A stretch of 64,000 nt of DNA from positions 15,155-79,154 of the forward strand of contig JACRML010000009.1 of assembly GCA_016214995.1 (NCBI GenBank). Reading direction: 5' to 3'. Under the pieces are notes generated by a model, which was not told the DNA's origin, ran no database searches, and saw only the letters and a program-made list of their open reading frames with translations. A program made the position numbers and the translations under genes. Numbering within the stretch: the first letter of the stretch is position 1; each line of letters starts with the position of its first letter. This stretch comes from Deltaproteobacteria bacterium. Lineage in GTDB: Bacteria; Desulfobacterota; GWC2-55-46; UBA9637. Of this stretch, positions 5,115 through 56,952 are shown one piece after another.

Positions 5115-5801
5115 ATGTTTATGGATACAAAGATTTACATAACAGGCATGGGTATATGCAATGAAGTCCCAGCCAAGATAGAGACGCCAAAGGCAGTGAA
5201 GACCGTCATAAAGGCAGAGGAACTGGCTCTGGCCGCAGTGTCTGCGGCGTTCAAGCAAATTAGAACTTGGGAATTAGACACTGGCATTGTCTTCGGCATA
5301 GATAATGCCATAGATAGATGCAAGGCAGAGTTCTTTAAAGGCCTTCTCGCAGAGGGGCCTATCGGCGCAAGCCCGCTGCTGTTCCCTTACACAAGCCATA
5401 ATGTCATAACAGCCCAGGCGACCATTGCCTTTGGCATAAAGGGCGAAGACATCACGATTACCAGCGGGGCATCGTCTTTTATGAAGGCCATTGGATATGG
5501 CTTTGAGTTGCTGTATAGATGTGTAATGAAGTCGGTTATTGCAGGCGGTGTCTCCGAGAATGGGGCAATGGTTATTGTAATGGAGAGCCTTGCCCCTGAT
5601 GAATTAGGAATTAGGAATTGGGAATTAGAAATTAGTAATAACGGGATTATCCTAAAAGAGATTACAGGTTTTAAGAACCCTCTACAACAGGATGAGGCTA
5701 ATGTAAAATCAATAGAGGACTCTTTTCTTTTAGTGGAAGATTTTATTAAGGGGAAAAGTAAACTTGTTACAGAAGACTGGGTATTTCAAATTAAGGCTTG
5801 A
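5115..5801 (+). CDS. truncated KS-like (thiolase-fold N-terminal-like) protein without catalytic Cys; carries an in-frame heptamer-repeat insertion
   Basis: MFMDTKIYITGMGIC... resembles a KS N-terminus. The GSG-like motif has no Cys. (gaattag)n at 5601-5635 encodes LGIRNWELEISNN. Confidence 0.5.
   Translation: MFMDTKIYITGMGICNEVPAKIETPKAVKTVIKAEELALAAVSAAFKQIRTWELDTGIVFGIDNAIDRCKAEFFKGLLAEGPIGASPLLFPYTSHNVITAQATIAFGIKGEDITITSGASSFMKAIGYGFELLYRCVMKSVIAGGVSENGAMVIVMESLAPDELGIRNWELEISNNGIILKEITGFKNPLQQDEANVKSIEDSFLLVEDFIKGKSKLVTEDWVFQIKA
5601..5635. repeat. heptanucleotide tandem repeat (gaattag)n inside a CDS; a second short run lies at 5825-5842
   Basis: Direct reading: gaattaggaattaggaattgggaattagaaattag. 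Confidence 0.9.
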
Positions 5802-5841
5802 ATCTTGCGGCATAAATCCTTATAGTATTAGGAATTAGGAA

Positions 5842-7149
5842 ATGGACTTCATATCAGATATAGACAGAAAAGACATAAAGGACATATCAGTCATTCAGGC
5901 CGAACTCCTCAAAGAAACAGTTTTCTATCTTTACAAAAACTCTCCGTTTTACAGAAAGAAAATCGCCCGCATCCCATCTATCAAGTGCATAGAGGATATT
6001 AGCGGTCTGTCCATAACAACAAAGGAAGACCTTCAGATAGACAACTGGGGTTTCCTCTGTGTGCCTAAGAACAATCTTTCAGAGATCGTTGCAACTACAG
6101 GCACAACCGGCGCGCATGTGTTCATAGGGCTTGCCAAAAAAGACATGGATAGGCTTGCGGAGAATGAAAAGAGATGCTTTTCCTATACAGGCGCCACACC
6201 GGACGACCTTTTTCTGTTATCCATTACCATGGATAATCTCTTCATCGCTGGAATGGCATACTATTCAGGGCTTCAGAGGCTTGGCGCAGGGGTTATCCGT
6301 ATGGGGCCGCATACCCCCAAAAGGCAGCTTGAGCTTATACACAGCCTTAAGCCTACCGGCATCGTGGCAGTGCCGTCTTTCATAATCGCCATTTACAAGC
6401 AGGCAGAAAAGGACAGGATAGACCTTAAAAAATCAAGCCTCAAAAAGATTGTCCTCATAGGCGAGGCCATAAGGAATGCGGATTTTTCTTCCAATACTCT
6501 TGGAAAAATGGTAGAAAAATTAAGCACGGCAGAGAGCTACTCCACCTACGGCATTACTGAGGCGCAGGTTGCATTTTGCGAATGTCAGTGTCATAAAGGG
6601 CTGCACTCTCACCCCGACCTTGTTTACGCCGAGATATTGGATGATGCAGGCAATACAGTTAAGGATGGTGAAATAGGAGAGCTTGTTGTAACCACATTCC
6701 AGATAGAGGGCATGCCGCTTTTAAGATACAGGACAGGCGACATGACCTTTAAGATAAGCGACAGATGTGATTGCGGAAGGACATCTGCCCGCATAGGGCC
6801 AATCATCGGCCGTAAGGCACAGAAGCTTAAGATAAAGGGAACGACAGTCTATCCTAAGGCCATAGAGAACATCTTGCTGGAGATAGATGGTGTTGAGAAT
6901 TATGTGATTGAGGCATATACAGGGGATGACCAGGCAGACCATGTTATCGTAAAGGTGGGCTCGCTTAAGACTCAAGACTCAAGACTCAAGACACAAGACT
7001 TAAAAGATGCTGTTTGTGAAAATATTAAGGCAAAGATAAGGGTTACGCCGCAGATTGAGATTATGCTGCCGCAGGAAGTGGAAAAGATTTTATATGAGGG
7101 CGGCAGGAGGAAGCCAATGACATTTGTGGACAGAAGGGGAAAGAGTTAG
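5842..7149 (+). CDS. phenylacetate-CoA ligase-like (PaaK / coenzyme F390 synthetase family) adenylate-forming enzyme
   Basis: ATTGTTGAHVF (P-loop-like SSGTTG motif), LRYRTGD (YRTGD). In-frame (actcaag)n at 6967-7001 encodes SLKTQDSRLKTQDLKD. Confidence 0.75.
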   Translation: MDFISDIDRKDIKDISVIQAELLKETVFYLYKNSPFYRKKIARIPSIKCIEDISGLSITTKEDLQIDNWGFLCVPKNNLSEIVATTGTTGAHVFIGLAKKDMDRLAENEKRCFSYTGATPDDLFLLSITMDNLFIAGMAYYSGLQRLGAGVIRMGPHTPKRQLELIHSLKPTGIVAVPSFIIAIYKQAEKDRIDLKKSSLKKIVLIGEAIRNADFSSNTLGKMVEKLSTAESYSTYGITEAQVAFCECQCHKGLHSHPDLVYAEILDDAGNTVKDGEIGELVVTTFQIEGMPLLRYRTGDMTFKISDRCDCGRTSARIGPIIGRKAQKLKIKGTTVYPKAIENILLEIDGVENYVIEAYTGDDQADHVIVKVGSLKTQDSRLKTQDLKDAVCENIKAKIRVTPQIEIMLPQEVEKILYEGGRRKPMTFVDRRGKS

Positions 7150-7222
7150 CGGATAGCGGATAGGAAAAGCGCATAGCGGATAGAAAAAACTAAACTCTAA
7201 ACGCTCTACGCTAAACGCTAAT
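7149..7222. repeat. intergenic heptamer tandem repeats (tagcgga)n followed by (ctaaacg)n
   Basis: agcggatagcggatagg...catagcggatag...aaactctaaacgctctacgctaaacgctaa. Confidence 0.85.
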
Positions 7223-7238: not shown

Positions 7239-8375
7239 ATGACGCTTAATTATGAAACCATCCACGGCCTGGATTTTACAAATGAGGAGATAACAGCCTG
7301 TCTTAAAAGAGGAGGACTTTTAACCCTTGAGCTGGAGTTTAGCAAGGTATGCAATCTTAAGTGCATATACTGTTATGCAAGCGCAGGCAATGCCATGTCT
7401 GATGAAATGACCCTTGCTGAAATAAAGAACGTTATAGACCAGGCAGCAGAACTTGGGGCAGAAAAGATAATTCTCCTTGGCGGCGGCGAGCCTCTTATGT
7501 ATGAGGACATCCCATTGGTTGTAGAATATATTCATAAAAAGGGGCTTAAACAAAGTATTTTCACAAATGGCATGCTTCTCACAAAAGAGCTTAGCGGTTT
7601 TTTGTTTGAACGAAATGTTTCGGTAGTTGTCAAACACAATAGCAATATCCCGGAGGTTCAGGATAAGCTGGGAGGCGTCAAAGGCGCTTACGACAAGATT
7701 CGGCATGGTTTTGAATATCTGCTGGAGGCAGGCTATCCCAATGGCGCAGCTCAGCTTGGCATACAGACTGTTATATGCCGGCAGAATTTAAAAGAGATTC
7801 CTGATATGTGGATATGGGCGCGGGAGAGAGGCATCATACCTTACTTTGAGATAATTACAAATCAGGGAAGGGCAAAAGAGCATAAAGAACTTCATGTCTC
7901 AAATGAAGAGATACGAAAGGTATTTGAGGAGCTTGAATATATAGATGAGACAAGATTTGGGCACAAATGGAGTCCGCATCCAACCATTGCATCATTTACA
8001 TGCAAGAGGCATCTATATTCATGTCTGGTAAACTCACAGGGTTATATTCAACCGTGCACAGGTATTGATATGCCTGTTGGAAATGTTAAACATGAGAAAT
8101 TAAAAGATATATTAAAGAAAAGCCCTGTAATCCAGAAACTAAGAAATATCTATGCCAATATTCAGGGCGAATGCAAGGCCTGCGAATTTGCCTTTGACTG
8201 TTACGGCTGCAGAGGGAATGCGTATCAGACCACCGGCAATTACCTTGCCCCTGACCCTGCATGCTGGCTGAACAAGAAAGCCAAACGACAAGCAGGCGCA
8301 AAAAAGCAAGCCGTTTCTGAGGTCCCGCTTGGCGGGGAGGGCAGCGTTGCAGTAGATACTACAATAAATTTCTAA
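7239..8375 (+). CDS. radical SAM enzyme with C-terminal SPASM-like Cys-rich domain
   Basis: CNLKCIYCYA (CxxxCxxC) at the N-terminus; C-terminal CKACEFAFDCYGCRGNAY and other Cys clusters. Confidence 0.8.
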   Translation: MTLNYETIHGLDFTNEEITACLKRGGLLTLELEFSKVCNLKCIYCYASAGNAMSDEMTLAEIKNVIDQAAELGAEKIILLGGGEPLMYEDIPLVVEYIHKKGLKQSIFTNGMLLTKELSGFLFERNVSVVVKHNSNIPEVQDKLGGVKGAYDKIRHGFEYLLEAGYPNGAAQLGIQTVICRQNLKEIPDMWIWARERGIIPYFEIITNQGRAKEHKELHVSNEEIRKVFEELEYIDETRFGHKWSPHPTIASFTCKRHLYSCLVNSQGYIQPCTGIDMPVGNVKHEKLKDILKKSPVIQKLRNIYANIQGECKACEFAFDCYGCRGNAYQTTGNYLAPDPACWLNKKAKRQAGAKKQAVSEVPLGGEGSVAVDTTINF

Positions 8376-8380
8376 TTTCT

Positions 8381-8415
8381 AAACCCCCACACCAAAGATT
8401 TTGGTGTGGGGGTTT
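8381..8415 (+). terminator. perfect 15-bp-stem hairpin after the SPASM radical-SAM gene (terminator or attenuator candidate)
   Basis: aaacccccacaccaaa-gatt-ttggtgtgggggttt followed by a weak T-rich tract. Confidence 0.45.
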
Positions 8416-8464
8416 AGGATTTCTTAATACCATGTCAACTTATTTAAGTCGTTCACTATAATTC

Positions 8465-9922
8465 ATGCAAATCCTCCTCATATCTGCCAACAGAGAAAAA
8501 ACCCCATACCCTGTATCTCCCATCGGGCTTGCATATATTGCGTCAGCCCTTATTAAGGACAACCACGATGTTGAGATACTTGACCTCTGTTTTGCAGAAG
8601 ATGTTATTTCAAGTCTGAAACAAACCATCGCAAGATTCAAGCCGGACATCATCGGCCTTTCCATCAGAAATATAGACAATCTTACATATCCAAAGAGCGT
8701 TTTTTACCTCCCTTATATTAAGTCTGTAGTTGATGAAATCAAACAAACCTGCCTGTCCCGTCGGGACGGCAGACAGGTGGATATTCCTCTTGTGATGGGC
8801 GGCTCTGGTTTTTCTCTCTTCCCTGAGGGTGTTTTAAGATACACAGGGCTTGAATTCGGCATAGTCGGAGAAGGGGAAAACGGCTTTTGCGAGTTTGTAA
8901 AAAGACAGGAAAGAAACAAGTGGGTTTATGATATTCCTAACCTGGCATATCTAAAAGGCGACAGATTTATTCAGAACCCGATAGCCTTCACAAGTGGTTT
9001 TTCAAAGCCTGATAGACTGTTTCTGGATAATGAAAGATATTTTCAATTTGGCGGAATGGCCAATATCCAGACTAAGAGGGGATGTCCCTTCAAGTGCATA
9101 TACTGCACATATCCATATCTTGACGGCAGCCGCATAAGATGCAGGGATGTGGATGATATAGTGGATGAAGTGGAGGAACTGGTTAATAAATACGGCATTG
9201 ACTATATATTTTTTGTTGACGACATATTTAACCAGCCTGTTGGCCATGCGATGGACATTTGCAGGGGCATCATAAAAAGGGGATTAAAAATAAACTGGAC
9301 ATGCTTTGCCACTCCAAAGGGCATGACACCGGAACTCTTAAGCCTTATGAAAGACGCAGGATGCATGGGCGTTGAATTCGGCACAGATGCTGCAAGCGCA
9401 GAGACGCTTCGCAGCATGGGTAAGTCATTTACCCCTGATGATGTGAGAAGGGTTTCCATCATGTGCGATGATGCAGGGCTTGAGGCTGCGCATTATCTTA
9501 TATTTGGCGGCCCAGGCGAAACAGAAAAGACGCTGGAGGAGTCCTTTGCGTTCATGGACGAGAATAACCCCAGGGCTGTAATTGCCATGACAGGCCTGAG
9601 GATTTATCCCAATACAGGGCTTGAAAAGATGAGCCTTGCACAAGGGGTTATAAAAAATGGCGAGGATATACTCCACCCCCATTTTTATATCTCTCCTGCA
9701 ATAGGTGAGGAAAGGCTTTTATCTATGGTCAAAGACCATGCCATCAGCCAGCCAAACTGGATAGTCCCTGGTTTGGATATAAGAAATTCAGAGGAGACAA
9801 TGACTGTCTTAAGAAAGTTCGGCAACAGAGGGCCTTTGTGGAATATGCTTAAAAAAAATGTCAAATACCAAAGTTCAAATGTCAAAACTTCAAAGTCAAA
9901 AGACTATGATGTATCTAAGTAA
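8465..9922 (+). CDS. B12-binding (class B) radical SAM enzyme
   Basis: N-terminal cobalamin-binding-like fold (MQILLISAN...VSPIGLAYIASAL..DVEILDL), then a radical SAM core RGCPFKCIYCTYP. The C-terminal tail is encoded by a heptamer-like repeat (9868-9905). Confidence 0.8.
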   Translation: MQILLISANREKTPYPVSPIGLAYIASALIKDNHDVEILDLCFAEDVISSLKQTIARFKPDIIGLSIRNIDNLTYPKSVFYLPYIKSVVDEIKQTCLSRRDGRQVDIPLVMGGSGFSLFPEGVLRYTGLEFGIVGEGENGFCEFVKRQERNKWVYDIPNLAYLKGDRFIQNPIAFTSGFSKPDRLFLDNERYFQFGGMANIQTKRGCPFKCIYCTYPYLDGSRIRCRDVDDIVDEVEELVNKYGIDYIFFVDDIFNQPVGHAMDICRGIIKRGLKINWTCFATPKGMTPELLSLMKDAGCMGVEFGTDAASAETLRSMGKSFTPDDVRRVSIMCDDAGLEAAHYLIFGGPGETEKTLEESFAFMDENNPRAVIAMTGLRIYPNTGLEKMSLAQGVIKNGEDILHPHFYISPAIGEERLLSMVKDHAISQPNWIVPGLDIRNSEETMTVLRKFGNRGPLWNMLKKNVKYQSSNVKTSKSKDYDVSK

Positions 9923-12902
9923 GAGGCTAAAGGCAAAAGGCTTTAGGTTTGTAATTTTTCTTTTCAACCTATTTTTCTTCAGCCTACAGCATGATATTTC
10001 CCACACAGCCAATCTTGACACCTCTTTTCAGTTTTCCACTATAGAAACAGAACATTTCTCCATCCACTTTCATCAGGGGCTTGAGGGTGCGGCTCACAAA
10101 GCTGCAGCTATTGCAGAGGAAGCGTACTATACGCTTGCCACAGGATTTAATTGGGAGCCAATGGAAAAGACGCAGATGGTCCTGATAGATAACTCCGACT
10201 TTACCAATGGCTGGGCAAAGGTGCTTCCCTATAATACGATTTACATACAGGTTGTGCCGCCGTTAGTAGACATGACAATAGGCGAATATGAAGACTGGCT
10301 CAAGATACTCATAATTCACGAATACAGTTATATACTCACAACTGACCCTGCAATGGGATATTCAAAAATAATGAGGCGCATATTCGGCAAGCCTCTTCCA
10401 GGAGGAGACCCCTTTTCCTTTCTTATGTTTATTGCTGCCGGGCCGCCGAATGTGTTTTTACCGAGATGGTGGCACGAGGGTATTGCAACATGGTCCGAGA
10501 CAGAGCATACAAAAGTAGGCAGAGGTAAAAGCACATATTATGAAATGATAATCAGAATGGCAGTTGCGGATGATAATATTCCGACAGTTGATAAGATAAA
10601 CGGTGAAGTCCCATACTGGCCTGATGGGCATATGCCCTATATATTTGGCCTAAGGCTTCAAAAATATATTGCAGATAAGTATGGTAGAGAGGCGCTGGGA
10701 AAGCTTAATTTAAAGCATGCCGGAAGATTCCCATATTTTTTAAACGGCGCACCCCAGAATTTGTTTGAAGGAGAAAGCTATATCTCCTTATATCGCGAGA
10801 TGGTGAAGGACTTAAAAACAGAAGAGAGGGAACAGATAGAGATATTAAAACAGGTGCCTTTTACACCATTTAAAATATTAAATATAAATGGTGAAATGCT
10901 TACCAATCCAAGATATTCTCCTGATGGCAGTATGATTGCATTCAATATGCGGGACCCACATGGGCATGAGGCAATTATGATAATGAACAAGGACGGTACA
11001 GATGTAGCAGGGTCTGTCAGAAGGCTTTATTCAGACCACATCATTGCATGGTCGCCGGACAGCGAATCTATATATTTCAGCCAGGCAGAGGTTAACAGAG
11101 GGTTTAATATCTATCAGGATTTATATTCGTATGACATAAAGAAGGCAAAGCTTAAAAGACTAACCCAGGGCCTTCGCATAAAAGAGCCTGATATATCGCC
11201 GGATGGGAAAAAAATTGCTGTTATTTTAAGCGACAGAGGCAATCAAAACCTTGCCCTCCTTACTTTTGAAAGATACAAACCCAAATTGGAAATAATCCTT
11301 CCTTCACCCCGCTTTGAAAAAGATAGGCTGCTGGGATTGCGGGTTTCTGGTCCAAGGTGGTCTCCGGATGGCAATTTTATTGCCTATTCTGTAACAACCA
11401 ATAATGGGAAGAGCAGCCTGTACATTTACGATACAATAGAAAAAACCCATAAACAACTCTTTGAAGATGCTGGGAACAATGCATATCTCACATGGTCAAG
11501 GGATAGTAAATATATTATCTATATGTCAGATAAGACGAGAGTATACAACCTTTTTGCATATTCAATGGAGCAAGACAGGCAGTATCAGATTACCCATATA
11601 CTTGGCGGCGCATTCCAGCCTGATGTTTCCACAGACGGCAAAGAGATTATTTTTTCCAGTTATAATTCCAGAGGTTTTAAGATTGCTAAAATTGAATATA
11701 ACCCTGAAAAGTGGATGACAATACCCAGTCCTACGATAAAGCCATATTGGAATGAGGAAAGTTCAGAGTTGAGAGTTGAGAGTTCGGAGTTGAAACCAAA
11801 AATCCAAAACCCGCAATCCGAAATTAAATCCGACTCTAATCCTTATTCGGCCCTTAATAGCCTCCTTCCCAGATTCTGGCTGCCTACACTTTCTAGTGAT
11901 CACGATGGCGCGGTAATTGGCGCTTTGACTTTTGGTCAGGATGTGCTTGGTTATAATACATATTATCTTAAATTGGATTATGGCGTTGAAAGCAGCGAGA
12001 TATACTACGATGCGGTATATATGAATGACTATATATATCCTACGCTGAGGCTGCGGACATACACAACACCTGTCTTATATTCGGATTTTCTTGAGAGAGG
12101 CGATTACTATGAATTAAACAGAAGTATTATTTTCAGCATGTCTCTGCCAATAAATTATTTAGAGTCGCACTACAGGTTTATTCTTGGCTATCATTTGCAA
12201 AAGCAGGAGGCATTAAGCGGCCTTACAAATAACAAGTTCAATGAGGTAGACGTATTTCATGGCCGTCGCGACAATGTATTCGCAGGCATTGAATTTTCCA
12301 ACAGTCTAAAATATCCATATTCCATAAGCCATGAAGAGGGTCGTAATATAAGTTTTTTATATAGATATTATAGCAAATACATAGGGAGTGATATTAATTC
12401 AAGGGAATACATTGCATCGTATTCGGAATATTTTCTCCTTCCCTTTTCAGGTTCAATGAGGCACAACGTAATTTATCTTAATCTTAAGGGTGCTGCATCG
12501 GATGGTGACAGGATAAACCAACAGGCATTTCAACTGGGCGGTTATTCTTCTCAATCAGAATTTCCCTTACGCGGTTATCCTTCAAGATTTGCAGCAGGGC
12601 AATATGTGGCTACAGGTACTTTGGAGTACCGTGCGCCTTTATGGTATATATTCCATGGTATAAATACAAAACCTTTTTTCTGGGACAGATTGCACGGCGC
12701 TGTTTTTACCGATGCAGGAGAGGTATGGGATGACACCAGAGATTTTTCATCTAGCAGATTAAAGGTAGGTGCTGGTATAGAGGTAAGACTTGATATGACC
12801 ATAGGTTACTTGCTGGAGATTACTCCTACCCTTGGTATTGCTCACGGCTTTAACCAGAACGGAGAGACACAGGTCTATTTTACCATATACACAAATCTTT
12901 AA
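9906..12902 (+). CDS. large secreted protein: signal peptide, TolB-like PD40 beta-propeller repeats, and a C-terminal Omp85/BamA-like beta-barrel-like region (start uncertain; the ORF is open from 9858)
   Basis: Multiple SPDG/SRDS...I.F/Y PD40-like repeats. C-terminus: RGYPSRF...GAVFTDAGEVW...GAGIEVRL...QVYFTIYTNL (Omp85-like). In-frame (agagttg)n at 11764-11794. Confidence 0.5.
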   Translation: MMYLSKRLKAKGFRFVIFLFNLFFFSLQHDISHTANLDTSFQFSTIETEHFSIHFHQGLEGAAHKAAAIAEEAYYTLATGFNWEPMEKTQMVLIDNSDFTNGWAKVLPYNTIYIQVVPPLVDMTIGEYEDWLKILIIHEYSYILTTDPAMGYSKIMRRIFGKPLPGGDPFSFLMFIAAGPPNVFLPRWWHEGIATWSETEHTKVGRGKSTYYEMIIRMAVADDNIPTVDKINGEVPYWPDGHMPYIFGLRLQKYIADKYGREALGKLNLKHAGRFPYFLNGAPQNLFEGESYISLYREMVKDLKTEEREQIEILKQVPFTPFKILNINGEMLTNPRYSPDGSMIAFNMRDPHGHEAIMIMNKDGTDVAGSVRRLYSDHIIAWSPDSESIYFSQAEVNRGFNIYQDLYSYDIKKAKLKRLTQGLRIKEPDISPDGKKIAVILSDRGNQNLALLTFERYKPKLEIILPSPRFEKDRLLGLRVSGPRWSPDGNFIAYSVTTNNGKSSLYIYDTIEKTHKQLFEDAGNNAYLTWSRDSKYIIYMSDKTRVYNLFAYSMEQDRQYQITHILGGAFQPDVSTDGKEIIFSSYNSRGFKIAKIEYNPEKWMTIPSPTIKPYWNEESSELRVESSELKPKIQNPQSEIKSDSNPYSALNSLLPRFWLPTLSSDHDGAVIGALTFGQDVLGYNTYYLKLDYGVESSEIYYDAVYMNDYIYPTLRLRTYTTPVLYSDFLERGDYYELNRSIIFSMSLPINYLESHYRFILGYHLQKQEALSGLTNNKFNEVDVFHGRRDNVFAGIEFSNSLKYPYSISHEEGRNISFLYRYYSKYIGSDINSREYIASYSEYFLLPFSGSMRHNVIYLNLKGAASDGDRINQQAFQLGGYSSQSEFPLRGYPSRFAAGQYVATGTLEYRAPLWYIFHGINTKPFFWDRLHGAVFTDAGEVWDDTRDFSSSRLKVGAGIEVRLDMTIGYLLEITPTLGIAHGFNQNGETQVYFTIYTNL

Positions 12903-14032: not shown

Positions 14033-14206
14033 AAAAACCGTGAATCGTGATCTTGTTCCGTGACCATGAAGAAAGAAGTTGAGAAGATGGGAAGTTAAGA
14101 AGTTGAAATGGTAAGTTTTTTCTCAACTTCTCAATTTCTTAATTTCTGCATTTTCACGGTTATAGACAACGGACATGGACAACGGTATTTTATAAGGGAG
14201 ATAACC

Positions 14207-23427: not shown

Positions 23428-23463
23428 ATAAGATAAAAGTTTCAGGTTTCAAGATACAAGTTG

Positions 23464-39284: not shown

Positions 39285-39360
39285 GAGACTGAGATTAAGG
39301 TTGAGAAAAACTGGTTTTAACCTTGACCTTAACCTTAGCCTTGACCTTAACCTTTACTCA
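39285..39360. repeat. inverted tandem hexamer/heptamer hairpin (aaggttgag)n ... (aaccttRR)n
   Basis: ggttgagactgagattaaggttgag...aaccttgaccttaaccttagccttgaccttaacctt. Confidence 0.8.
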
Positions 39361-45390: not shown

Positions 45391-46713
45391 ATGATTGAAA
45401 GATATTCCAGAAAAGAGATGGCAAAAATATGGGAGCCGGAGAACAGATTTAAAAAATGGCTCGATGTGGAGATTGCAGCATGTGAGGCATGGGCAAAACT
45501 AGGTGAGATTCCAAAGAAGGCTCTCAATAACATCAAGACGAGGGCTGATTTTAACATCCAAAGAATAGACGAGATTGAAAAAACGGTAAAGCACGATGTT
45601 ATCTCGTTTCTGACCTCTGTTGCGGAATTTGTCGGGCCTGATTCAAGATATATCCACCGGGGGCTTACCTCATCCGATATCCTTGACACATCCCTTGCCC
45701 TTCTTTTGAGAGAGGCTGCGGATTTGATTATTGCAGATATAAAGAAATTGATGGAGGCAATAAAAAAGCGGGCGTTTGAACATAAACATACGGTGATGAT
45801 AGGTCGTTCTCACGGAATCCATGCGGAGCCTATAACCTTCGGGCTCAAGATGGCGCTCTGGTATGGGGAGATGAAGAGAAATCTTGTAAGGATGCAGAGG
45901 GCGAAAGAGATTGTTTCCTATGGTAAACTTTCCGGTGCAGTAGGTACATTTGCAAATATTCCGCCGTTTGTTGAGGAGTATGCGTGTAAAAAACTTGGAC
46001 TCAAGCCCGCGCCTATTTCAACTCAAATTATCCAGCGTGACAGGCACGCAGAATATTTTACAACACTGGCCATCATTGCGTCGTCTATTGAAAAATTTGC
46101 TGTAGAGATAAGACATCTCCAGAGAACAGAGGTTCTGGAGACTGAAGAACCGTTTACTGTGGGGCAGAAAGGCTCGTCAGCCATGCCGCACAAGAGAAAC
46201 CCTGTTTTGTCTGAAAACCTGACAGGCCTTGCAAGGCTTGTAAGAGGCTATGCAAGCGCGGCAATGGAGAATATTCCGCTCTGGCATGAGAGGGATATAA
46301 GCCATTCATCAGTTGAAAGGGTGATTGCACCTGACGCAACAATCCTTGTTGACTTTATGCTGTCAAGGGCAACAGGGCTTATCAAAGATTTGGTTGTCTA
46401 TCCTGAAAATATGAAAGAGAACCTGAATAAACTTAAAGGCCTCCTCTTTTCCCAAACAGTCCTCATCGCCCTTACGGAAAAGGGCGTGAGCAGGGAAGAT
46501 GCGTATCAACTGGTTCAGAGAAATGCCATGAAGGTATGGGGAGAAATACAGGGGGCAAGGAGGAGTCAAGGGGTCAAGGGATTGAAAGATGCTTTGCTCA
46601 AAGACAGGGATGTTACAGCGCGGCTTTCAAAAAAAGAGATTGATGCATGTTTTGATATTTCAAGGCATGTGAAGAATGTTGATTATATATTTAAGAGGGT
46701 GTTTAAGGATTAG
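45391..46713 (+). CDS. purB: adenylosuccinate lyase
   Basis: MIERYSRKEM..IW....R...WL.VE.A N-terminus; SSAMPHKRNP lyase signature. Confidence 0.9.
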   Translation: MIERYSRKEMAKIWEPENRFKKWLDVEIAACEAWAKLGEIPKKALNNIKTRADFNIQRIDEIEKTVKHDVISFLTSVAEFVGPDSRYIHRGLTSSDILDTSLALLLREAADLIIADIKKLMEAIKKRAFEHKHTVMIGRSHGIHAEPITFGLKMALWYGEMKRNLVRMQRAKEIVSYGKLSGAVGTFANIPPFVEEYACKKLGLKPAPISTQIIQRDRHAEYFTTLAIIASSIEKFAVEIRHLQRTEVLETEEPFTVGQKGSSAMPHKRNPVLSENLTGLARLVRGYASAAMENIPLWHERDISHSSVERVIAPDATILVDFMLSRATGLIKDLVVYPENMKENLNKLKGLLFSQTVLIALTEKGVSREDAYQLVQRNAMKVWGEIQGARRSQGVKGLKDALLKDRDVTARLSKKEIDACFDISRHVKNVDYIFKRVFKD

Positions 46714-46721
46714 TAAAAAAA

Positions 46722-46792
46722 AGTCAAAAGTGATAAGTCAGAAGTCAGAAGAAAACCAAGAACTCCTTTTGACTCTTGACTCCTGACTTGTA
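46722..46792. repeat. inverted heptamer-repeat hairpin between purB and purC
   Basis: gtcaaaagtgataagtcagaagtcagaag...cttttgactcttgactcctgacttg. Confidence 0.8.
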
Positions 46793-47575: not shown

Positions 47576-48733
47576 ATGTCATTATCAAAAAATAAAAGAG
47601 CAATTCTTGCCCTTGCAGACGGCACGGTATTTGAAGGTTTTTCATTCGGTGGAGAAGGTGAAGCAATGGGCGAAGTGGTTTTCAATACCTCTATGTGCGG
47701 GTATCAGGAAGTTCTTACCGACCCATCCTATAAAGGTCAAATTGTTTCCATGACCTATACCCAGATAGGAAATTATGGCGTGGCTGAAGAGGATATAGAA
47801 TCAAATAAGCTATGGCTTGAGGGTTTTATAGTAAAGGAGTATTGCCCTTATCCGAGCAACTGGAGGGTGAAAGAGACGCTGGATAGTTATTTAAAGAAAA
47901 ATAAGATTGTTGGTATTCAGGGTGTAGATACAAGGGCGCTTACGAGGCATTTAAGGGACAGCGGTGCCATGAATGGGGTTATATCAACCGTAGATTTAAA
48001 CCCGGCAAATCTTGTTAAAAAGGCAAATAAATTTCCCTCAATGGCAGGGCTTGACCTTGCAAAAGAGGTTACCTGCAAGGAGCCTTATAAATGGAATCAA
48101 GGACTCTGGGATTTGGACAAAGGTTATCCCACCTCCCACCTCCCACCCCGCACCTCCTACAAAGTGGTTGCCTATGATTTTGGTATGAAATTAAACATAT
48201 TACGAAATCTTATTAATGTTGAGTGTGATGTTACAGTTGTGCCGGCTTCAACATCTGCCGAAGATGTTTTAAAGATGAATCCTGACGGTATATTCCTTTC
48301 TAACGGCCCCGGCGATCCGGATGCTGTTACCTACGCCATAGAAAATGTGCGGAAGCTGATTGGAAAAAAACCAATATTTGGTATTTGTCTAGGCCATCAG
48401 ATACTTGGTTTAGCGCTTGGCGGAAAGACATATAAACTTAAATTTGGCCATCACGGCGGGAATCAGCCTGTTATGGATTTGACCACCAACAAGGTTGAAA
48501 TCACTGCCCAGAATCATGGTTTTGCAGTAAATGTGGATTCCTTGAAAGGTATTGCTGAACTTACACATATCAATCTTAATGATAAAACTGTGGAGGGTCT
48601 GGCGCATACAAAACTGCCACTCTTCTCTGTGCAGTATCATCCCGAGGCATCTCCTGGGCCGCACGATTCTTCGTATCTATTCAGGCGCTTTGTTGACATG
48701 ATGGAGGGTAGGTGGAATTTCAAGGGTATATAG
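47576..48733 (+). CDS. carA: carbamoyl-phosphate synthase small (glutamine amidotransferase) subunit, with in-frame heptamer insertion
   Basis: N-terminal CPSase_sm domain; GATase catalytic GICLGHQ; (cccacct)n at 48127-48160 encodes [10 protein letters not shown]. Confidence 0.9.
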
Positions 48734-50688: not shown

Positions 50689-52485
50689 TTGCCAAAACGG
50701 ACAGACATAAAAAAGATCTTAATAATCGGCGCGGGGCCGATTATCATCGGCCAGGCGTGCGAATTCGATTATTCCGGCACTCAGGCGTGCAAGGCTTTGA
50801 AGGAGGAGGGGTATGAGGTTGTGCTCATCAACTCAAATCCGGCAACCATTATGACCGACCCCGGTTTTGCGGACAAAACCTACATTGAGCCGATTACGCC
50901 GGAGATTGTTGAGAAGATAATTGAAAAGGAAAGACCGGATGCGTTGCTGCCGACTATGGGTGGACAGACCGCGCTCAATACTGCGGTGGCTTTGGCGGAG
51001 TCAGGTGTTCTGGAAAAATATAAGGTTGAACTTATCGGCGCAAAACTTCCGGCAATAAAAAAGGCGGAGGACAGGGAACTCTTTAAAGAGGCGATGAAAC
51101 GGATCGGTCTTGAAGTTCCAGCCAGCGGTTATGCCAAGACGCTTACTGATGCGCAGAGCATCATGGAGGAGATGAGCTATCCTGCAATCATCCGGCCATC
51201 CTTTACCCTTGGCGGAACAGGCGGCGGCATTGCCTACAACAGCGAGGAATTCAAGGACATGGTGCAATACGGTCTTGACGCAAGCCCTTACAGCGAACTG
51301 CTGATTGAAGAATCTGTTATAGGCTGGAAGGAATATGAGCTTGAGGTGATGAGGGATACTAAAGACAATGTGGTAATTATCTGCTCTATTGAAAATTTTG
51401 ACCCGATGGGCGTTCACACCGGCGATTCCATAACCGTTGCACCCGCGCAGACGCTCACGGATAAAGAATATCAGATTATGCGTGATGCAGCGTTAAAGAT
51501 TATCCGGGAGATTGGCGTTGATACCGGCGGCTCCAATATCCAGTTTTCCCTGAATCCCGACAACGGCAAGATGTATGTGATAGAGATGAATCCCCGCGTC
51601 TCCCGTTCATCCGCGCTTGCGAGCAAGGCAACCGGCTTTCCCATTGCAAAGATTGCGGCAAAATTGGCAGTGGGTTATACCCTTGATGAGATACCGAATG
51701 ACATAACAAAAAAGACGCCGGCATGTTTTGAGCCTACCATTGATTATGTTGTCACAAAGATTCCGAGATTCACCTTTGAAAAATTTCCGCAGGCTGACTC
51801 AACCCTTACAACACAGATGAAGTCTGTGGGTGAAGTAATGGCAATAGGCAGAACATTTAAAGAATCTCTGCAAAAGGCGCTCAGGTCTCTTGAGATAGGA
51901 AGCTATGGCTTTGAGATAAAGAAATCGGTAAGATATGAGAAACCCGGTGATTATATAGAAGTAATTAAGGAAAAACTCAGAGTGCCTAATTGGGAAAGGC
52001 TTTGGTATATAGGGGATGCATTCAGATGCGGCGTGACTGTTGATGAGATATTTGAGTTGTCAAAAATAGATAGATGGTTTTTGCATAATATAAGGGAGAT
52101 TGTGGAGTTTGAGGAGGATATCAGAAGTCAGAAGTCAGAAGTCAGAAGTCAGAAGCAAGAAAAAAATCTTGCCTCTTGCCCCTTGCCTCTTGCCTCCGAT
52201 TTATTACGGCAGGCAAAGGAACTTGGGTTTTCTGACAGGCGAATAGCCCGGCTTCTATCAACAGGAAAGAAGTTAGGCGGCAAAAGGTGCGATGTTCCTT
52301 CTGGCAAAGATTTAGAAGTAAAAGAACATGAAATCAGAAAAAAAAGAATTGATGCCGGTATCCTGCCTGCCTATAAAACAGTTGATACCTGCGGCGCAGA
52401 ATTTGAGGCGTTTACGCCGTATCTGTATTCAACTTATGAAAAACCATACTATAAGATTCAAAATTCAAAATTCAAAATTCCTTGA
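50689..52485 (+). CDS. carB: carbamoyl-phosphate synthase large subunit, N-terminal half (split carB), with heptamer insertions
   Basis: [28 protein letters not shown]...; ATP-grasp 1 and oligomerisation domain; (agaagtc)n and (cttgcct)n at 52121-52198; C-terminal tail encoded by (aaaattc)n. Confidence 0.9.
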
Positions 52486-54224
52486 ATATTGAATCTGGAA
52501 TCTTGAATTCTGCTGAAAGCAGATATGACTGCGAAGCAAATCCTACCAACCGCAAGAAGGTGATAATCCTCGGCAGCGGGCCGAACAGAATAGGTCAGGG
52601 CATTGAGTTTGACTATTGCTGTGTGCATGCATCATTTGCTTTAAAAGAAGAAGGGATTGAAACAATCATGGTTAACTGTAATCCTGAGACTGTTTCAACA
52701 GATTATGACACATCGGACAGGCTTTATTTTGAGCCCCTTACATTTGAAGATGTTATGAATATAATTGAAAAGGAAAAACCGTATGGCATTATTGTCCAAT
52801 TTGGCGGGCAAACTCCCCTGAAACTTGCAGTGCCTCTTGAAAAGGCAGGGGTGAAAATACTTGGCACATCCCCTGATTCAATTGATATTGCAGAAGACAG
52901 GGAGAGATTTGATAAACTCCTTACAAAACTAAATTTAAAAAGACCTGAAAGCGGTGTGGCCCGCTCAATTGATGAAGCAATTAATATTGCATTGGAAATT
53001 GGCTATCCTGTAATGGTCAGGCCGTCGTATGTTCTCGGCGGCAGGGCAATGGAAATAGTTTACACAGAGGATAGCTTGAAAGGTTATATGACAAGGGCAG
53101 TGGAGGCATCTCCCGAACATCCTGTGCTTATTGATAAGTTCTTGAATAATGCGACAGAGGTTGATGTTGACTGTATAAGTGATGGAAAGGATGTTGTTAT
53201 TGGCGGGATTATGGAGCATATTGAAGAGGCAGGCATTCATTCGGGCGATTCAGCTTGCTCCATACCGCCACACTCTCTTAACCCGAAGGTAATTGGCAAC
53301 ATAAGAAAGCAAACAATAGCCATGGCAAAAGAGTTGAATGTTGTCGGTTTGATGAATGTTCAGTTTGCAGTGAAAAAAAATCCCCCCATACCCCCCTTTG
53401 AAAAAGGGGGGATTGAGGAGGGATTAAACAAGGGTCAAGGGTCAGAAAAATACGAAATATATGTGCTTGAGGTCAATCCCAGGGCGTCAAGGACTGTGCC
53501 GTTTGTAAGCAAGGCCATAGGCAAGCCTTTGGCAAAAATTGCGGCAAAGGTAATGATAGGCAAGACACTCAAAGAACTTGGATTTACAAAAGAGGTTGTG
53601 CCGCAGCACACATCGGTCAAGGAATCGGTATTCCCATTTATAAAATTCCCTGGTGTTGATACTATACTCGGCCCTGAGATGAAATCAACAGGCGAGGTTA
53701 TGGGCATAGATGCGGATTTCGGCAAGGCCTTTGCCAAGGCGCAGATTGCGGCAGGGACTAAACTCCCTTTAAAAGGCACAGTATTTATCAGCGTTAAAGA
53801 TGATGATAAAGATGAGGTTATACCGGCTGCAAAGAAATTAGAGGGCATGGGCTTTAAAATCATTGCAACAAGCGGGACTGCGCAGCATCTGAAAGCAAAA
53901 GGGGTTAATGCAGAATTTGTGTATAAGGTTGGCGAGGGCAGGCCGCATATAGTGGACAAAATAAAGAGCGGCGAGATAGCAATGGTGATAAACACATCTT
54001 TTGGGGCAAAGTCTGTGGCAGATTCATATTCAATAAGACGTTCAGCCCTCGTGTATAATGTTCCATATTTTACAACCGTTGCCGGCGCAAAGGCCGCGGC
54101 ACAGGGTATAACATCGTTAATCAGAGAGGGGCTTAAGGTAAAACCGATACAGGAATATCATAAGGCGAGTCAAGAGTCAAAAGTCAAGAGTCAAAGAAAT
54201 CTTTTACTTATAACTTCTGACTAA
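52482..54224 (+). CDS. carB: carbamoyl-phosphate synthase large subunit, C-terminal half (split carB; TTG start overlapping the upstream stop as TTGA)
   Basis: [25 protein letters not shown]...; ATP-grasp 2 and MGS-like domain; C-terminus encoded by (agtcaag)n at 54167-54196. Confidence 0.85.
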
Positions 54225-54300: not shown

Positions 54301-54393
54301 TTTTAATCGGTGTAATCTAATCTTTAATCTGTGTAATCAGAGATTGTTGAGTTTGTCAACAATCTCTAATGACCTATCACTTGTTATTCTCAT

Positions 54394-56952
54394 ATGGATT
54401 CAACCGCACACGATCCATTTTTTCAAATCATTTCAAACCTTCTCAAGCCGTTATTGTTTGCATCAAAAGATAATTTTGCCCATCTGTCTGCAGTAAAGGA
54501 TATTGAACCCCTTGTGCAAAATCTTTGCCGTCAGGCCCTGGCTTTTCCCATATCAGAGAATAATGTCAAAGAACTTCAAAATGTGTTTGAAGGTTTTGAT
54601 TCATTGGCACTGGAGGGAAAGAAAGATAAGATAAGAAAAGCGCTGGAAATTATTAAAGTAATCAGCAATCAGTGGTCAGTGGTCAGTATATTTGCTGAAA
54701 GCCGAAAGCTGAATGTTGAATGCTACTCTTTAGATGAGATAAAAACCAGATTATCCAAAATTTCAACTCCTCTCAAGGCAGTTAAAGGCATCGGGCCGAA
54801 ACTGGGTGAGGTGTTCAGAAAAAAAGGATTAGAGACCGTGGAAGATATTTTATACTGGCTGCCCATCAGATACGAAGACAGGCGGCAGATAAAAAAGATT
54901 GCCCAATTGAGATTCGGGGTAAGAGAGGTTGCCTCCGGTGAGATAATGGCTATGAGGGAGGTTTTTTACGGCAGGCGCAAAGTCTTTGAGATTAGTATGG
55001 GTGACGGGAGCGGGTTTTTAAGACTGAAATGGTTTAATTACAGGCTTCCGCTTATAAAAAAGAGATATAAGATTGCCCAGAGATTGGTGGTCTATGGAGA
55101 GATTGGAAGCTTTGGCGGACAGAAAGAGATAATCCACCCTGATGTGGATATTTTCGAAAAGGATGAGGAACTGGATGCTATTAACTTTAATGCCATTGTA
55201 CCGGTCTATTCACAAATCGGGAATTTGCATCAGAAGACTTTGCGGAAGATAATGAGAAAGATAGTTGAAGAATATGTGTGTTGCGCAACCGGCGCTGTGC
55301 CTTCGTATATGCTGAAACGTTACGGGCTCATGGAATTGCCAAATGCTTTGGCTGAGGCCCATAAACCCAACTCCAAATTCCCAACTCCTAACCCAGAACT
55401 GTCCAAAGGCTGGCTGCCGAAAAAGAGCCTTGTATTTGATGAATTGTTTTGTCTTGAGATTGGGCTTGCGTTAAAAAAAGGCAATACGGAGAGAGAAAGC
55501 GGTATTGCGTTCACTGTGGGGACAGATTTGAAATCTCTCCCCATGGTTGAAAATTTTAAAAATATGCTGCCATTTGAATTAACCACGGCGCAGGAGAGGG
55601 TTGTCTCTGAGATAAAAAGGGATATGGCGGCACCTCATCCCATGAATCGCCTGATACAGGGCGATGTTGGCTCAGGCAAGACAGTTGTTGCATTCATTGC
55701 CAGCCTCATTGCCATTGAAAATAATTATCAATCTGCAATCATGGCTCCGACAGAGATACTTGCTGAGCAGCATTATCTTAATATCCATAGATACGCAGAT
55801 GGCATTGGCATAAGGATTGCATTTTTAAGCGGCAGCCTTACAAAATCTGAGAAGACAGGAATTCTGGATGGTATAAAAACAGGGAGGATAGACCTTGCCA
55901 TAGGCACTCATGCGCTTATTCAGGAGGATGTGGAATTTAAAAAGCTTGGCCTTGTAATTGTGGATGAGCAGCACAGATTTGGCGTTATGCAGAGGGCAAT
56001 GCTGAAAAAAAAGGGGCAAGGGGTAAGCCTGTCCCCGCAGGCATTAAGCAGGGAGGGCAAGGGGCAAGAAAGAAGTGGACTTGACTCCGGCTGCTTGACC
56101 CTGACCCCTGATGTATTAGTTATGACCGCCACACCGATACCGAGGACATTGGCCATGACCGTTTTTGGCGACCTTGATGTTTCGGTTATTGATGAATTGC
56201 CGCCAGGGAGAAGGCCGATTAAAACAAAGGCTCTCAGAGGAAATGGAAGAGATCAGGTTTATAAGATTATAAGAGGAGAACTTGCAAAAGGGAGGCAGAG
56301 CTATATTGTCTATCCGCTTATAGAGGAGTCGGAGGAGCTTGATTTAAGAGATGCTACGAAGATGGCAGAGCATTTGCAGAAGGATATATTCCATGAGTAT
56401 AAGATTGGTCTTTTGCATGGACGGATAAAGGCAGAGGAAAAGGAAAATATTATGAAGGCCTTTAAGTCAAAAGAAATAAATATACTCGTATCTACAACGG
56501 TTATAGAAGTTGGAATAGATGTGCCGAATGCAACAGTTATGGTAATTGAACATGCGGAACGGTTCGGCCTTTCACAGCTTCATCAACTCCGGGGCAGAGT
56601 GGGAAGGGGAGATCACAACTCGTATTGTATTCTCCTTGCTGATAAAATTGGCTCCGACGATTCCTACAAAAGATTAAAGGTTATGGAAGAGACTAATGAC
56701 GGTTTCAGAATAGCAGAAGAGGATTTGAATATCCGAGGGCCAGGAGATTTTCTCGGCACAAGGCAGTCCGGGCTCCCTGATTTCAGGGTTGCCAACCTTT
56801 TAATAGATGCTTCAATACTTCAGAAGGCTAGGGATGAGGCATTCAATATAATAAAAATAGACCCAGCCCTTGTAATGCCGGAGCATGCGGCTTTAAAGGA
56901 GATTGTAAAGATGCGCTGGAAGGGAAGGATGGAACTGGCACAAATTGGGTAG
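54394..56952 (+). CDS. recG: ATP-dependent DNA helicase RecG (with N-terminal extension and an in-frame G-rich repeat insertion)
   Basis: Wedge region LKAVKGIGPKLGEVF..LPIRYED; helicase motifs GDVGSGKT, VDEQHRFGV, TATPIPRTL; insertion at ~56010-56110 (ggcaagg repeats). Confidence 0.9.
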   Translation: MDSTAHDPFFQIISNLLKPLLFASKDNFAHLSAVKDIEPLVQNLCRQALAFPISENNVKELQNVFEGFDSLALEGKKDKIRKALEIIKVISNQWSVVSIFAESRKLNVECYSLDEIKTRLSKISTPLKAVKGIGPKLGEVFRKKGLETVEDILYWLPIRYEDRRQIKKIAQLRFGVREVASGEIMAMREVFYGRRKVFEISMGDGSGFLRLKWFNYRLPLIKKRYKIAQRLVVYGEIGSFGGQKEIIHPDVDIFEKDEELDAINFNAIVPVYSQIGNLHQKTLRKIMRKIVEEYVCCATGAVPSYMLKRYGLMELPNALAEAHKPNSKFPTPNPELSKGWLPKKSLVFDELFCLEIGLALKKGNTERESGIAFTVGTDLKSLPMVENFKNMLPFELTTAQERVVSEIKRDMAAPHPMNRLIQGDVGSGKTVVAFIASLIAIENNYQSAIMAPTEILAEQHYLNIHRYADGIGIRIAFLSGSLTKSEKTGILDGIKTGRIDLAIGTHALIQEDVEFKKLGLVIVDEQHRFGVMQRAMLKKKGQGVSLSPQALSREGKGQERSGLDSGCLTLTPDVLVMTATPIPRTLAMTVFGDLDVSVIDELPPGRRPIKTKALRGNGRDQVYKIIRGELAKGRQSYIVYPLIEESEELDLRDATKMAEHLQKDIFHEYKIGLLHGRIKAEEKENIMKAFKSKEINILVSTTVIEVGIDVPNATVMVIEHAERFGLSQLHQLRGRVGRGDHNSYCILLADKIGSDDSYKRLKVMEETNDGFRIAEEDLNIRGPGDFLGTRQSGLPDFRVANLLIDASILQKARDEAFNIIKIDPALVMPEHAALKEIVKMRWKGRMELAQIG

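Follow-up and report, generated by a model that had tools for sequence, protein, structure and literature searches.

Introduction

Heptanucleotide repeats have been known in cyanobacteria since 1990. The units of these short tandemly repeated repetitive (STRR) sequences, whose description in 1990 is ascribed to Mazel, are reportedly CCCCAGT (STRR1), TTGGTCA (STRR2) and CAACAGT (STRR3). In this work, we describe arrays of tandem 7-nt units in a stretch of 64,000 nt, called the window here, from contig JACRML010000009.1 (assembly GCA_016214995.1) of a deltaproteobacterial metagenome-assembled genome (MAG). The arrays lie between genes and, in frame, within housekeeping genes such as carA, carB, recG and purB. 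The best-supported reading is that they represent a known phenomenon, the STRR or long simple sequence repeat, in a new host lineage; a literature search found no report of heptanucleotide repeats in Deltaproteobacteria. The many unit classes with a GTCA core, the inverted pairs that form hairpins and the frequent translation of arrays in housekeeping genes are distinctive here. A candidate repeat-mediated fission of carB may be added to these.

According to the account of Mrazek (2007) given in PMC4679880, heptanucleotides are the commonest class of long simple sequence repeats in many bacteria, and STRR-like repeats are not restricted to heterocystous cyanobacteria, for which an earlier reading of the window from its letters alone (the original prediction) had described them as classical. 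A polymerase-slippage rationale for heptamers is credited to the same study in PMC4679880 and PMC4692102. Direct repeats of TAACTGA were described in marine Beggiatoaceae, some Cyanobacteria and Bacteroidetes (MacGregor, 2015; PMC4679880), and the possible splitting of a protein by repeat insertion was explicitly considered there (PMC4679880).

The window shares with cyanobacterial STRR sequences the tandem 7-nt units, the large number of arrays at a similar density (2.5 period-7 arrays per 10 kb compared with 2.35 in eight cyanobacterial loci), the intergenic bias, some unit classes (AAGTCAG and ACTCCTG) and the GTCA core. On the other hand, the host belongs to a deltaproteobacterial MAG lineage, the unit classes are many and not few, inverted pairs and hairpins are frequent, and many arrays are translated in housekeeping genes. 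None of the three consensus units was found as a tandem copy in the window at up to one mismatch; the nearest sequence, at 54672, is TCAGTGG, which differs at 2 positions over two units. As in the TAACTGA system, arrays of 2-6 heptamers stand beside start and stop codons and some lie in open reading frames (ORFs) at protein termini, whereas that system has one dominant unit (169 sets) and a single inverted arrangement was reported. TAACTGA itself gave 0 matches in the window at up to 2 mismatches over two units. The GGGAATC repeats of Xanthomonas and GGGGAYT repeats of Nostoc (Rehm, 2015; PMC4692102) are also intergenic heptamers with occasional inverted pairs capable of stem-loops, and they also vary widely in length and sequence at one intergenic site between close relatives. 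However, they are G-rich, form G-quadruplexes and belong to a single family, while the units in the window are diverse, mostly A/T- and purine-rich, and often coding.

Two groups of palindromic elements are also comparable. As PMC10969869 relates them from Ogata (2000), Rickettsia palindromic elements are hairpin DNA lying in frame in conserved metabolic genes that have no relation to one another, where the protein fold can accommodate them, and in this they resemble the repeats described here. By the same account they form families of ~150 bp with a conserved peptide and are presumed mobile, whereas the heptamer hairpins have no consensus and appear to grow in place. Repetitive extragenic palindromes (REP), bacterial interspersed mosaic elements and REP doublets forming hairpins (REPIN) of enterobacteria and pseudomonads are, like the hairpins here, imperfect palindromes just after stop codons inside operons. 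REP have a genome-wide consensus and a cognate REP-associated tyrosine transposase (RAYT, an IS200/IS605-like Y1 enzyme), and neither was seen here (Pfam scan of 50 of the 55 listed window ORFs, those outside 59041-63801). The shared consensus or terminal inverted repeats of miniature inverted-repeat transposable elements (MITE) and Rickettsia elements are absent from the heptamer hairpins and are found only in a separate family of nested CCCC..GGGG palindromes, which is the closer analogue of the Rickettsia elements.

Methods

Tandem Repeats Finder was run on the window, and a stricter self-match detector of our own was used for counts. Densities were obtained with one detector for all sets. 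Metagenome loci were gathered with a family-specific CarB segment as the query; the relatives compared are loci L081-L093, L087 and L094 are one contig, and L003 is a Thermodesulfovibrionales locus. CarB matches from GTDB (up to 69% identity) served solely as an outgroup panel. Inserts in carB were placed by alignment to E. coli CarB (1BXR and others) and by Pfam domains. The z scores of the inverted pairs compare the fold with that of dinucleotide shuffles.

Results and Discussion

Abundance of period-7 arrays and the host lineage

About 23 period-7 arrays were found by Tandem Repeats Finder between positions 2246 and 54687 of the window. The stricter detector counted 16 such arrays in the 64 kb, whereas 30 Markov shuffles gave 0.43 on average and never more than 2; for periods 8-12 it counted 0-1 arrays. 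The pervasive 7-nt repeats that had been predicted are therefore confirmed, and every unit sequence and position named in the original prediction was found in the window. Its list was incomplete, however, as it left out the inverted pairs at 2246-2340 and 14073-14153 and the purB insert at 46546-46581 (Table 1). The arrays belong to at least 20 unit classes within 64 kb. Long simple sequence repeats are defined by a unit of 5-11 nt in arrays longer and commoner than expected by chance, and the count of 16 against 0.43 places the arrays within this definition.

Per 10 kb, five related species had 2.15 period-7 arrays, and 72 loci of other bacteria (1.26 Mb) had 0.25; in the latter set, periods 8-9 reached about 0.03-0.05. 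Among metagenome loci, it was 2.97 in 14 loci with an extended carB junction and 0.25 in 65 loci with the standard junction. Because of this comparison across sets, the trait is seen to be clade-wide, to match the cyanobacteria in strength and to exceed most other bacteria about tenfold. The arrays are not an assembly artefact, since they are shorter than a read and have equivalents in independent assemblies of relatives (ENA, JGI, NCBI and Logan).

The view that the window is not cyanobacterial also held, as RecG and the CoA ligase each match, at 100% identity, an NCBI protein labelled 'MAG: Deltaproteobacteria bacterium' and the carA-carB-recG synteny is common to the window, Geoalkalibacter and deltaproteobacterial MAGs. 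In GTDB, with one genome per species, the closest CarB among the matches listed was only 69% identical, and these matches came from Geoalkalibacter, deltaproteobacterial MAGs, Thermodesulfovibrionales and Dadabacteria. Relatives at 70-90% protein identity were found in groundwater and sediment metagenomes (Rifle ANAN16, JGI, Hainich, Logan). The lineage is an unusually clean comparative system, with several species at this range of identity.

Arrays translated within genes

All peptides quoted in the original prediction for in-frame runs are true in-frame translations of ORFs, including the recG insert. Two cases have to be narrowed. The tail of the B12-dependent radical SAM (B12-rSAM) protein contains only a degenerate AAANNTC run, and the carA array is real, although it replaces a linker of similar length and adds little length. 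The expectation that the inserts are lineage-specific and map to linkers or loops was borne out by ortholog alignment: outgroup CarB, CarA, RecG and CoA ligase lack all of them, and the same inserts were not found in unrelated orthologs. In the β-ketoacyl synthase (KS)-like ORF, the GAATTAG array lies outside the Pfam-matched stretch 83-147, and distant CoA-ligase homologues do not have the 5-6 aa encoded by the array. Site 4 of carB aligns to the FAVKNNEVY segment of E. coli CarB in the second ATP-grasp domain, with a gap in relatives and outgroups.

The presence of in-gene inserts varies even inside the family. The 30-aa insert of recG is present in the window, L085, L086 and L087, and absent in L081, L088, L093 and L001. 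At the carA linker site, L087 has ATCCCAT x4, and L093 has a different peptide (SLRTPNSEL) at that site and ACTCCGA x4.4 in its carA. The system shows how such repeats keep supplying essential proteins (CarA, CarB, RecG and PurB) with new loops.

Origin and remodelling of the arrays

Comparison with the relatives shows the state before expansion. At carB site A, the loci L093, L081 and L086 contain the unexpanded ATCAGAAAC/ATCAGGAAA...CTTTYRCC. The sequence in these relatives is ...ATCAGAAAC(C/A)GGGA(G/A)AACTTT(T/C)(A/G)CCTGATTTATTA, and in the window it is ...A(TCAGAAG)5CAAGAAAAAAA(TCTTGCC)4TCCGATTTATTA. The site A array grew locally from this seed, which the three relatives still have in unexpanded form. 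At the CoA-ligase site, nearly every unit has changed and the length has been kept, with AAGACTC x5 in the window and AAAACTC x5 in L091, whose ortholog is 88% identical; L089 has CAGGGGT x7 at the same site. The almost complete difference between orthologous CoA-ligase units, together with the differing units of the carA linker, indicates that orthologous arrays undergo concerted evolution. Some arrays are old, since recG TCAGTGG x2.7 corresponds to GTCAGTG x2.7 in L087 and carB CAAGGGT to AGGGTCA in L081. Furthermore, a 7-nt indel (CTTTTCC|CTTTTAA) lies inside deoC between L081 and L083, two samples of one species that are 99.8% identical, and shortens the called gene from 227 to 186 aa (L081 16652 vs L083 about 14851). 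Indels of 7 nt thus segregate in natural populations.

We hypothesize, with moderate confidence, that these are STRR-like heptanucleotide repeats which slipped-strand mispairing, preferentially in steps of 7 nt, generates and keeps remodelling in place. In this lineage of uncultured groundwater Deltaproteobacteria, the process would be about ten times as active as in most bacteria. The replication slippage that had been proposed gains comparative support from the local seed, the concerted evolution and the natural 7-nt indel. The mobile mini-repeat offered beside it in the original prediction fits the nested CCCC..GGGG palindromes better than the heptamer arrays. In the proposed course of events, a local 7-mer, preferably with a GTCA/TCAG core, would be duplicated and expanded to 3-6 units, as seen at carB site A. 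Cycles of contraction and re-expansion would then homogenise the units, so that orthologous arrays differ in nearly all units and keep their length, as was seen. Within genes, selection would retain an array only if it lies in a linker, loop or tail and its net length is a multiple of three, and the retained arrays would be translated as low-complexity loops with a period of 7 aa. Between genes, arrays would survive as inverted pairs. The arms of such a pair can anneal in more than one register and probably expand jointly, filling intercistronic spacers that the relatives do not have. An occasional step of plus or minus 7 nt would fall out of frame, and here such a step may have split carB, one unit from the intact gene.

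Hairpins between genes and a separate palindrome family

The prediction that intergenic inverted pairs form hairpins stood for most of them. The pairs at 7145, 14070, 23428(-), 38258, 39282 and 52450 fold strongly (z -4.6 to -7.3), with weaker folds at 2240 (z -2.2) and 46716 (z -3.2). However, the pair at 39285-39360 has a period of 6 nt, and the supposed intergenic hairpin at 52460-52510 lies inside carB and includes the stop codon that splits the gene. The in-gene direct arrays at 5601, 6967 and 11760 do not fold, and the pair at carB site A has no significant fold (z -1.5). The hairpins begin 3-10 nt past stop codons, and the distance from the hairpin end to the following start is in some cases only 0-17 nt. 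Intrinsic terminators, which have a G+C-rich stem and then a U-tract, were considered and rejected. None of the heptamer hairpins in 36500-56400 was called as one (18 calls, none of them at these hairpins, where 16.4 were expected by chance), and by eye the sequence that follows the hairpins is A-rich or mixed. A role of the hairpins in mRNA stability or translational coupling may be supposed.

The genes for CoA ligase, the radical SAM (rSAM) protein and the B12-rSAM protein overlap or abut in L089 and L090 (ATGA, TAATG), and are separated by 89-nt spacers in the window. Because of this arrangement in the relatives, the pair at 7147-7222 and the hairpin at 8367-8422 are read as insertions. In a rough census with mononucleotide shuffles and the best of several sliding windows, in which z is inflated for long spacers, 14 of the 35 intergenic spacers contain a strong hairpin (z < -4.5). 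Since only 4 of these 14 have clearly 7-periodic arms, the heptamer hairpins are one subset of a hairpin-rich intergenic landscape; the purB-purC pair is 7-periodic too, with a weaker fold.

The nested C4-6/G4-6 palindromes occur in 8 copies in the window, 3 of them in ORFs, and the copy at 25285-25318 is a near-identical reverse copy of that at 2398-2431. In relatives (L081, L086, L085, L096, L112), the carB junction, recG and carA contain this type in frame, translated as PPFxKGG. It looks like a mobile palindrome of the REP or Rickettsia-palindromic-element kind, distinct from the heptamer arrays.

Interruption of carB

In the window, carB is present as two ORFs in different frames (Table 1), while carB is unsplit in the relatives (1150, 1148 and 1122 aa for the called genes, and an uninterrupted frame of 1126 aa in L093). 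The stop codon lies at the top of the ATTCAAA/CTTGAAT hairpin. It follows the residue aligned to E. coli CarB 549, at the border of the oligomerisation and carbamoyl-phosphate domains, and the start of the second ORF precedes CEANP. Measured between two anchors, YSTYE and VIILG, the junction has a standard length of 36 nt in 63 of 78 metagenome loci and 54-159 nt in the other 15, of which 14 begin with a PFY/PYY-type motif. All 18 other loci with an extended junction (L003, L081, L086 and the 15 metagenome loci) are in frame, and the insert of the window is the only one out of frame among the 19. Adding one ATTCAAA (+7 nt) gives a single CarB of 1180 aa, and removing two (-14 nt) gives one of 1173 aa.

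The content of the junction differs by locus. It is a heptamer pair in L087 (z -7.1), L096 and L127, a direct array in L093, a CCCC..GGGG palindrome in L081, L086 and L112, and a unique hairpin in L003. The inserts of L093 (z +1.7) and L097 (z +0.7) do not fold. In the window, the array at 52457-52477 is exactly (TTCAAAA)3, a heptamer that in Nostoc PCC 7120 has been reported ahead of several genes, recF among them (bioRxiv 10.1101/2022.06.06.494920).

The carB split may be a real fission, a young pseudogene or a consensus error. Several ways of reading through the break were considered and rejected. A zero-frame X XXY YYZ slippery site for a classic -1 frameshift was not visible by eye, and transcriptional slippage is unlikely as the longest A run is 4 (by eye). 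For a bypass like that of T4 gene 60, CCU-UGA stands at the hairpin top and CCU follows 62 nt downstream in the frame of the C-half, which is a matter of geometry alone, and such a bypass would delete the conserved CEAN. No Shine-Dalgarno-like purine run (AGGA/GGAG) was visible just upstream of the TTG of the second ORF, by eye and without a scan.

Naturally split carB genes exist in Aquifex aeolicus and Methanocaldococcus jannaschii. The break in the window resembles these in its position at the junction of the two homologous halves. It differs in that the ORFs overlap (TTGA) within one unit of an intact frame, that no ribosome-binding site is visible and that the relatives are all unsplit. 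Repeats may thus fracture a multidomain gene at a domain boundary, which would be a plausible route to gene fission. In addition, at ~52240-52300 (CarB residues about 522-540) the oligomerisation domain contains a 19-aa insert with no obvious heptamer periodicity now, which is common to the window, L081, L086 and L093 and absent in L087 and the outgroups.

Alternative explanations

Several observations weigh against slippage in place. The GTCA core is found in 14 of 41 family arrays, compared with a null of 4.2% if 7-mers are drawn at random (p = 6e-10 with all arrays counted; about 8-9 of ~33 once hairpin partners and orthologues are taken out), and it also occurs in 7 of 28 cyanobacterial arrays, with two unit classes shared with Aetokthonos. 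An identical perfect TCAGAAG x5 stands at site A in the window and at the carB junction in the closest relative, L093. Neither the bias nor this recurrence is predicted by plain slippage. The pair at 7147-7222 lies between genes that overlap in relatives, so there was no spacer there to slip, and it is flanked by AGGGGAAAG...AGGGGAAAA, an 8/9-nt direct repeat that looks like a target-site duplication. Nothing in the analysis explains why the step is 7. A second assembly of the same species was not found by look-ups with carA and the 100%-identical RecG in the contig index, and the comparisons are with other species. Most of these points would also suit small mobile elements (MITE-, REPIN- or Rickettsia-palindromic-element-like) that insert at gene boundaries and permissive coding sites and diverge fast, and the same genome does hold a dispersed palindromic element. 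We nevertheless regard such elements as a rather unlikely source, because the heptamer arrays share no termini, flanks or consensus among their many unit classes, a local seed is visible at carB site A and orthologous arrays evolve in place. In the Pfam scan of 50 of the 55 listed ORFs, no transposase, RAYT or reverse transcriptase was found, only the XerC/D-like recombinase, an HNH endonuclease and a DUF559 protein. The flanking AGGGGAAA repeat is also the Shine-Dalgarno region needed downstream, so its duplication may be selected; it is one case, 7147-7222 against the empty sites of L089 and L090, with no other informative empty site. Mobility is best supported for the palindrome family and for this one insertion, and is a partial rival to slippage. 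It is quite unlikely, in our opinion, that a dedicated, sequence-biased 7-nt expansion process with a GTCA/TCAG core, as in cyanobacteria, replaces generic slippage. Such a process would build register-shiftable hairpins, remodel linkers and keep a hairpin at the carB mid-point clade-wide, and the carB fission, at the domain boundary of the natural splits in Aquifex and Methanocaldococcus, would then yield a functional two-subunit enzyme, possibly by termination-reinitiation at the overlapping UUGA. The unit vocabulary of the lineage is shared and non-random (GTCA core), and it recurs in cyanobacteria.

The frame break of carB may also be a consensus or assembly error or a minority variant, in an organism with an intact carB and an in-frame hairpin insert. 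This is possible, and we tend to doubt it. Apart from the single gene in all relatives and the missing purine run, the two halves are otherwise intact and 86% identical to L093, the defect is exactly one repeat unit, and contigs of relatives break inside such arrays. However, the array and hairpin span only ~55 nt and so fit within a read, samples of one species (L081/L083) truly differ by an indel of this 7-nt class, and a naturally split carB is viable. That a 7-nt unit shifts the reading frame, that carB is one unit from being in frame and that an indel truncates deoC in a relative would also be expected if the arrays were contingency loci for phase variation, with the carB break as one such switch. 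We consider this behaviour, which the original prediction had raised, highly improbable: the genes are housekeeping genes (carA, carB, recG, purB) and not surface or virulence genes, the arrays are short (2-6 units), all other carB junction inserts are in frame, and the copy number of orthologous arrays is kept between species (recG x2.7 in the window and L087, CoA ligase x5 in the window and L091). The comparison of strains for repeat-number polymorphism gave the one deoC indel, but the arrays were identical in four samples of one related species. Finally, selected functions at the RNA level or in protein binding are a partial rival. The inverted pairs would then be RNA hairpins through which polycistronic mRNA is stabilised or processed, or translational coupling adjusted. 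Regulatory roles were proposed for heptamers elsewhere (PMC4679880; bioRxiv 10.1101/2022.06.06.494920), the hairpins are close to stop and start codons, ATTAGGA x2 abuts an ATG and supplies AGGA, and structure persists at the carB mid-point in 19 loci despite complete sequence change. It is very doubtful that this accounts for the repeats, as close relatives have no spacers at all where their genes overlap, neither unit nor structure is conserved between loci, the in-gene direct arrays and several junction inserts of relatives (L093, L097) do not fold, and there is no covariation evidence. Rfam at the gathering threshold and ARAGORN gave no matches over the whole window.

Features of the window

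Table 1. Repeat features and carB reading frames, in window positions; fold is the z score against shuffles
Feature	Position	Strand	Location and remarks	Fold
Inverted pair ATTGAAA x6 / TTACAAT x5.7	2246..2340	+	overlaps stop of KS-like gene 1089-2264	-2.2
Direct array GAATTAG x5.6	5601..5639	+	in frame, KS-like ORF 5115-5801 (LGIRNWELEISNN)	none
ATTAGGA x2.1	5827..5841	+	abuts CoA-ligase ATG (gap 0); AGGA inside resembles Shine-Dalgarno site	
AAGACTC x4.9	6967..7000	+	in frame, CoA ligase 5842-7149 (SLKTQDSRLKTQDLKD)	none
Inverted pair TAGCGGA / CTAAACG	7147..7222	+	fills 89-nt spacer from CoA ligase to rSAM-SPASM gene	-5.2
AATTTCT x2.3, then perfect 20-bp C5/G5 hairpin	8367..8422	+	rSAM to B12-rSAM spacer	-7.2
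Degenerate AAANNTC run	9861..9901	+	spans B12-rSAM tail and start of PD40/Omp85 gene	
AGTTGAG x4.6	11760..11791	+	in frame, PD40/Omp85 protein (ESSELRVESSELK); linker between beta-propeller and Omp85 domains	none
Inverted pair, period about 8, AGAAGTTG / TTCTCAAC	14073..14153	+	spacer after fabG-like gene	-4.8
Inverted pair AAGTTNC	23431..23553	-	fills spacer of two minus-strand genes, 3-4 nt from each	-7.3
TCCTACC-type direct array	26276..26307	-	3 nt from gene 26311-27726	none
AGTGTTG x2.3	37092..37107	+	covers stop codon of RidA-like gene	
Inverted pair AGTCARR / CTTYTGA	38262..38335	+	6 nt past stop of DUF218 gene; not terminator-like	-6.7
Inverted pair, 6-nt period (GGTTGA / TTAACC; TTAACC/TTGACC)	39285..39360	+	ends 5 nt before ATG of XerC/D-like recombinase gene	-5.4
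In-frame insert IQGARRSQGVKG of GGGGCAA/GGGTCAA units	46546..46581	+	purB; without counterpart in 86%-identical L093 purB	
Inverted pair AAAAGTC/AGAAGTC + TTGACTC	46719..46792	+	purB-purC spacer	-3.2
TCCCACC x4.4	48127..48157	+	carA inter-domain linker	
carB as two ORFs	50689..54224	+	50689-52485 (598 aa) and 52482-54224 (580 aa, TTG start overlapping TGA stop); different frames	
carB site A: TCAGAAG x5 (perfect) + TCTTGCC x4.3	52121..52196	+	17-aa insert, oligomerisation domain	-1.5
carB junction: inverted pair ATTCAAA x3.6 / CTTGAAT x4	52456..52508	+	boundary of N and C halves; stop 52483-52485	-4.6
carB site 4: nested C6/G6 palindrome, then CAAGGGT x2.3	53391..53444	+	absent in L093; orthologous AGGGTCA x3.6 in L081	
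GAGTCAA x4	54167..54194	+	forms CarB C-terminal tail	
TCAGTGG x2.7	54669..54687	+	recG N-terminal extension (SNQWSVVS); orthologous GTCAGTG x2.7 in L087, AGCAGTC in L088	
recG 30-aa insert	56014..56110	+	between helicase segments DEQH and TATP; degenerate GGGGCAA arrays facing CTTGACC arrays	-2.2
Nested C4-6/G4-6 palindromes (e.g. ACACACCCCTAAATCCCCTCTCGAGAGGGGACTAAAGGGGTGTGT)	2398-2431, 2467-2482, 25285-25318, 44813-44829			
Nested C4-6/G4-6 palindromes, further copies	44881-44898, 45308-45325, 49953-49968, 53391-53411			

The window carries a lipid-type cluster with KS, CoA-ligase, radical-SAM, FabG and FabA genes, together with purine, pyrimidine and lipid A genes and regulators. The lipid/polyketide-like cluster (163-17186) contains four KS-like genes, methyltransferases, a phenylacetate-CoA-ligase-like enzyme, rSAM-SPASM and B12-rSAM proteins, a PD40+Omp85 protein, FabG, FabA/Z, ACPS and GT2. 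Homologues of the CoA ligase are present in Brocadia and Nitrospirota MAGs. Directly downstream of the cluster, on the opposite strand, lie genes for an amine-oxidase-like oxidoreductase and an MMPL transporter (17211-21334).

The CoA-ligase region of two relatives also bears on assembly. The contigs L091 (2057-2076) and L092 (1484-1503), from two samples, end 20 nt past the CoA-ligase stop, in TTGCGAA TGATGAA TTACGA. As both stop inside a heptamer-like run, this suggests that assemblers break at heptamer hairpin arrays. For annotation, the warning is that heptamer arrays are the places where the contig breaks and frameshifted "pseudogenes" of these MAGs concentrate.

At 31036-31416 and 31485-31706, the window encodes two small paralogues whose N-termini resemble signal peptides. 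The second contains in-frame 18-nt repeats (AAEPAK) and a Lys/Glu-rich tail derived from AAG/AAA-rich repeats of 9-12 nt. The Zip transporter gene and purB adjoin in L081, L086 and L087; in the window, an HNH endonuclease gene with homing-endonuclease repeats and a DUF559 (Vsr-like) gene (43850-45330) separate them. Copies of the C/G palindrome lie immediately upstream of the DUF559 gene and near both of its ends, and the segment has probably come in as a selfish cassette. A ParE-toxin gene and an ORF for a 204-aa protein of unknown function, with a 27-nt x2 repeat at 50227-50279, stand at 49628-50617 between the DUF7986 gene and carB, which adjoin in relatives. The carB-recG spacer measures 169 nt compared with 14-61 nt in relatives, and at 54250-54380 it contains two strong non-periodic hairpins from GATTACACAGAT-type repeats (z -7.1).

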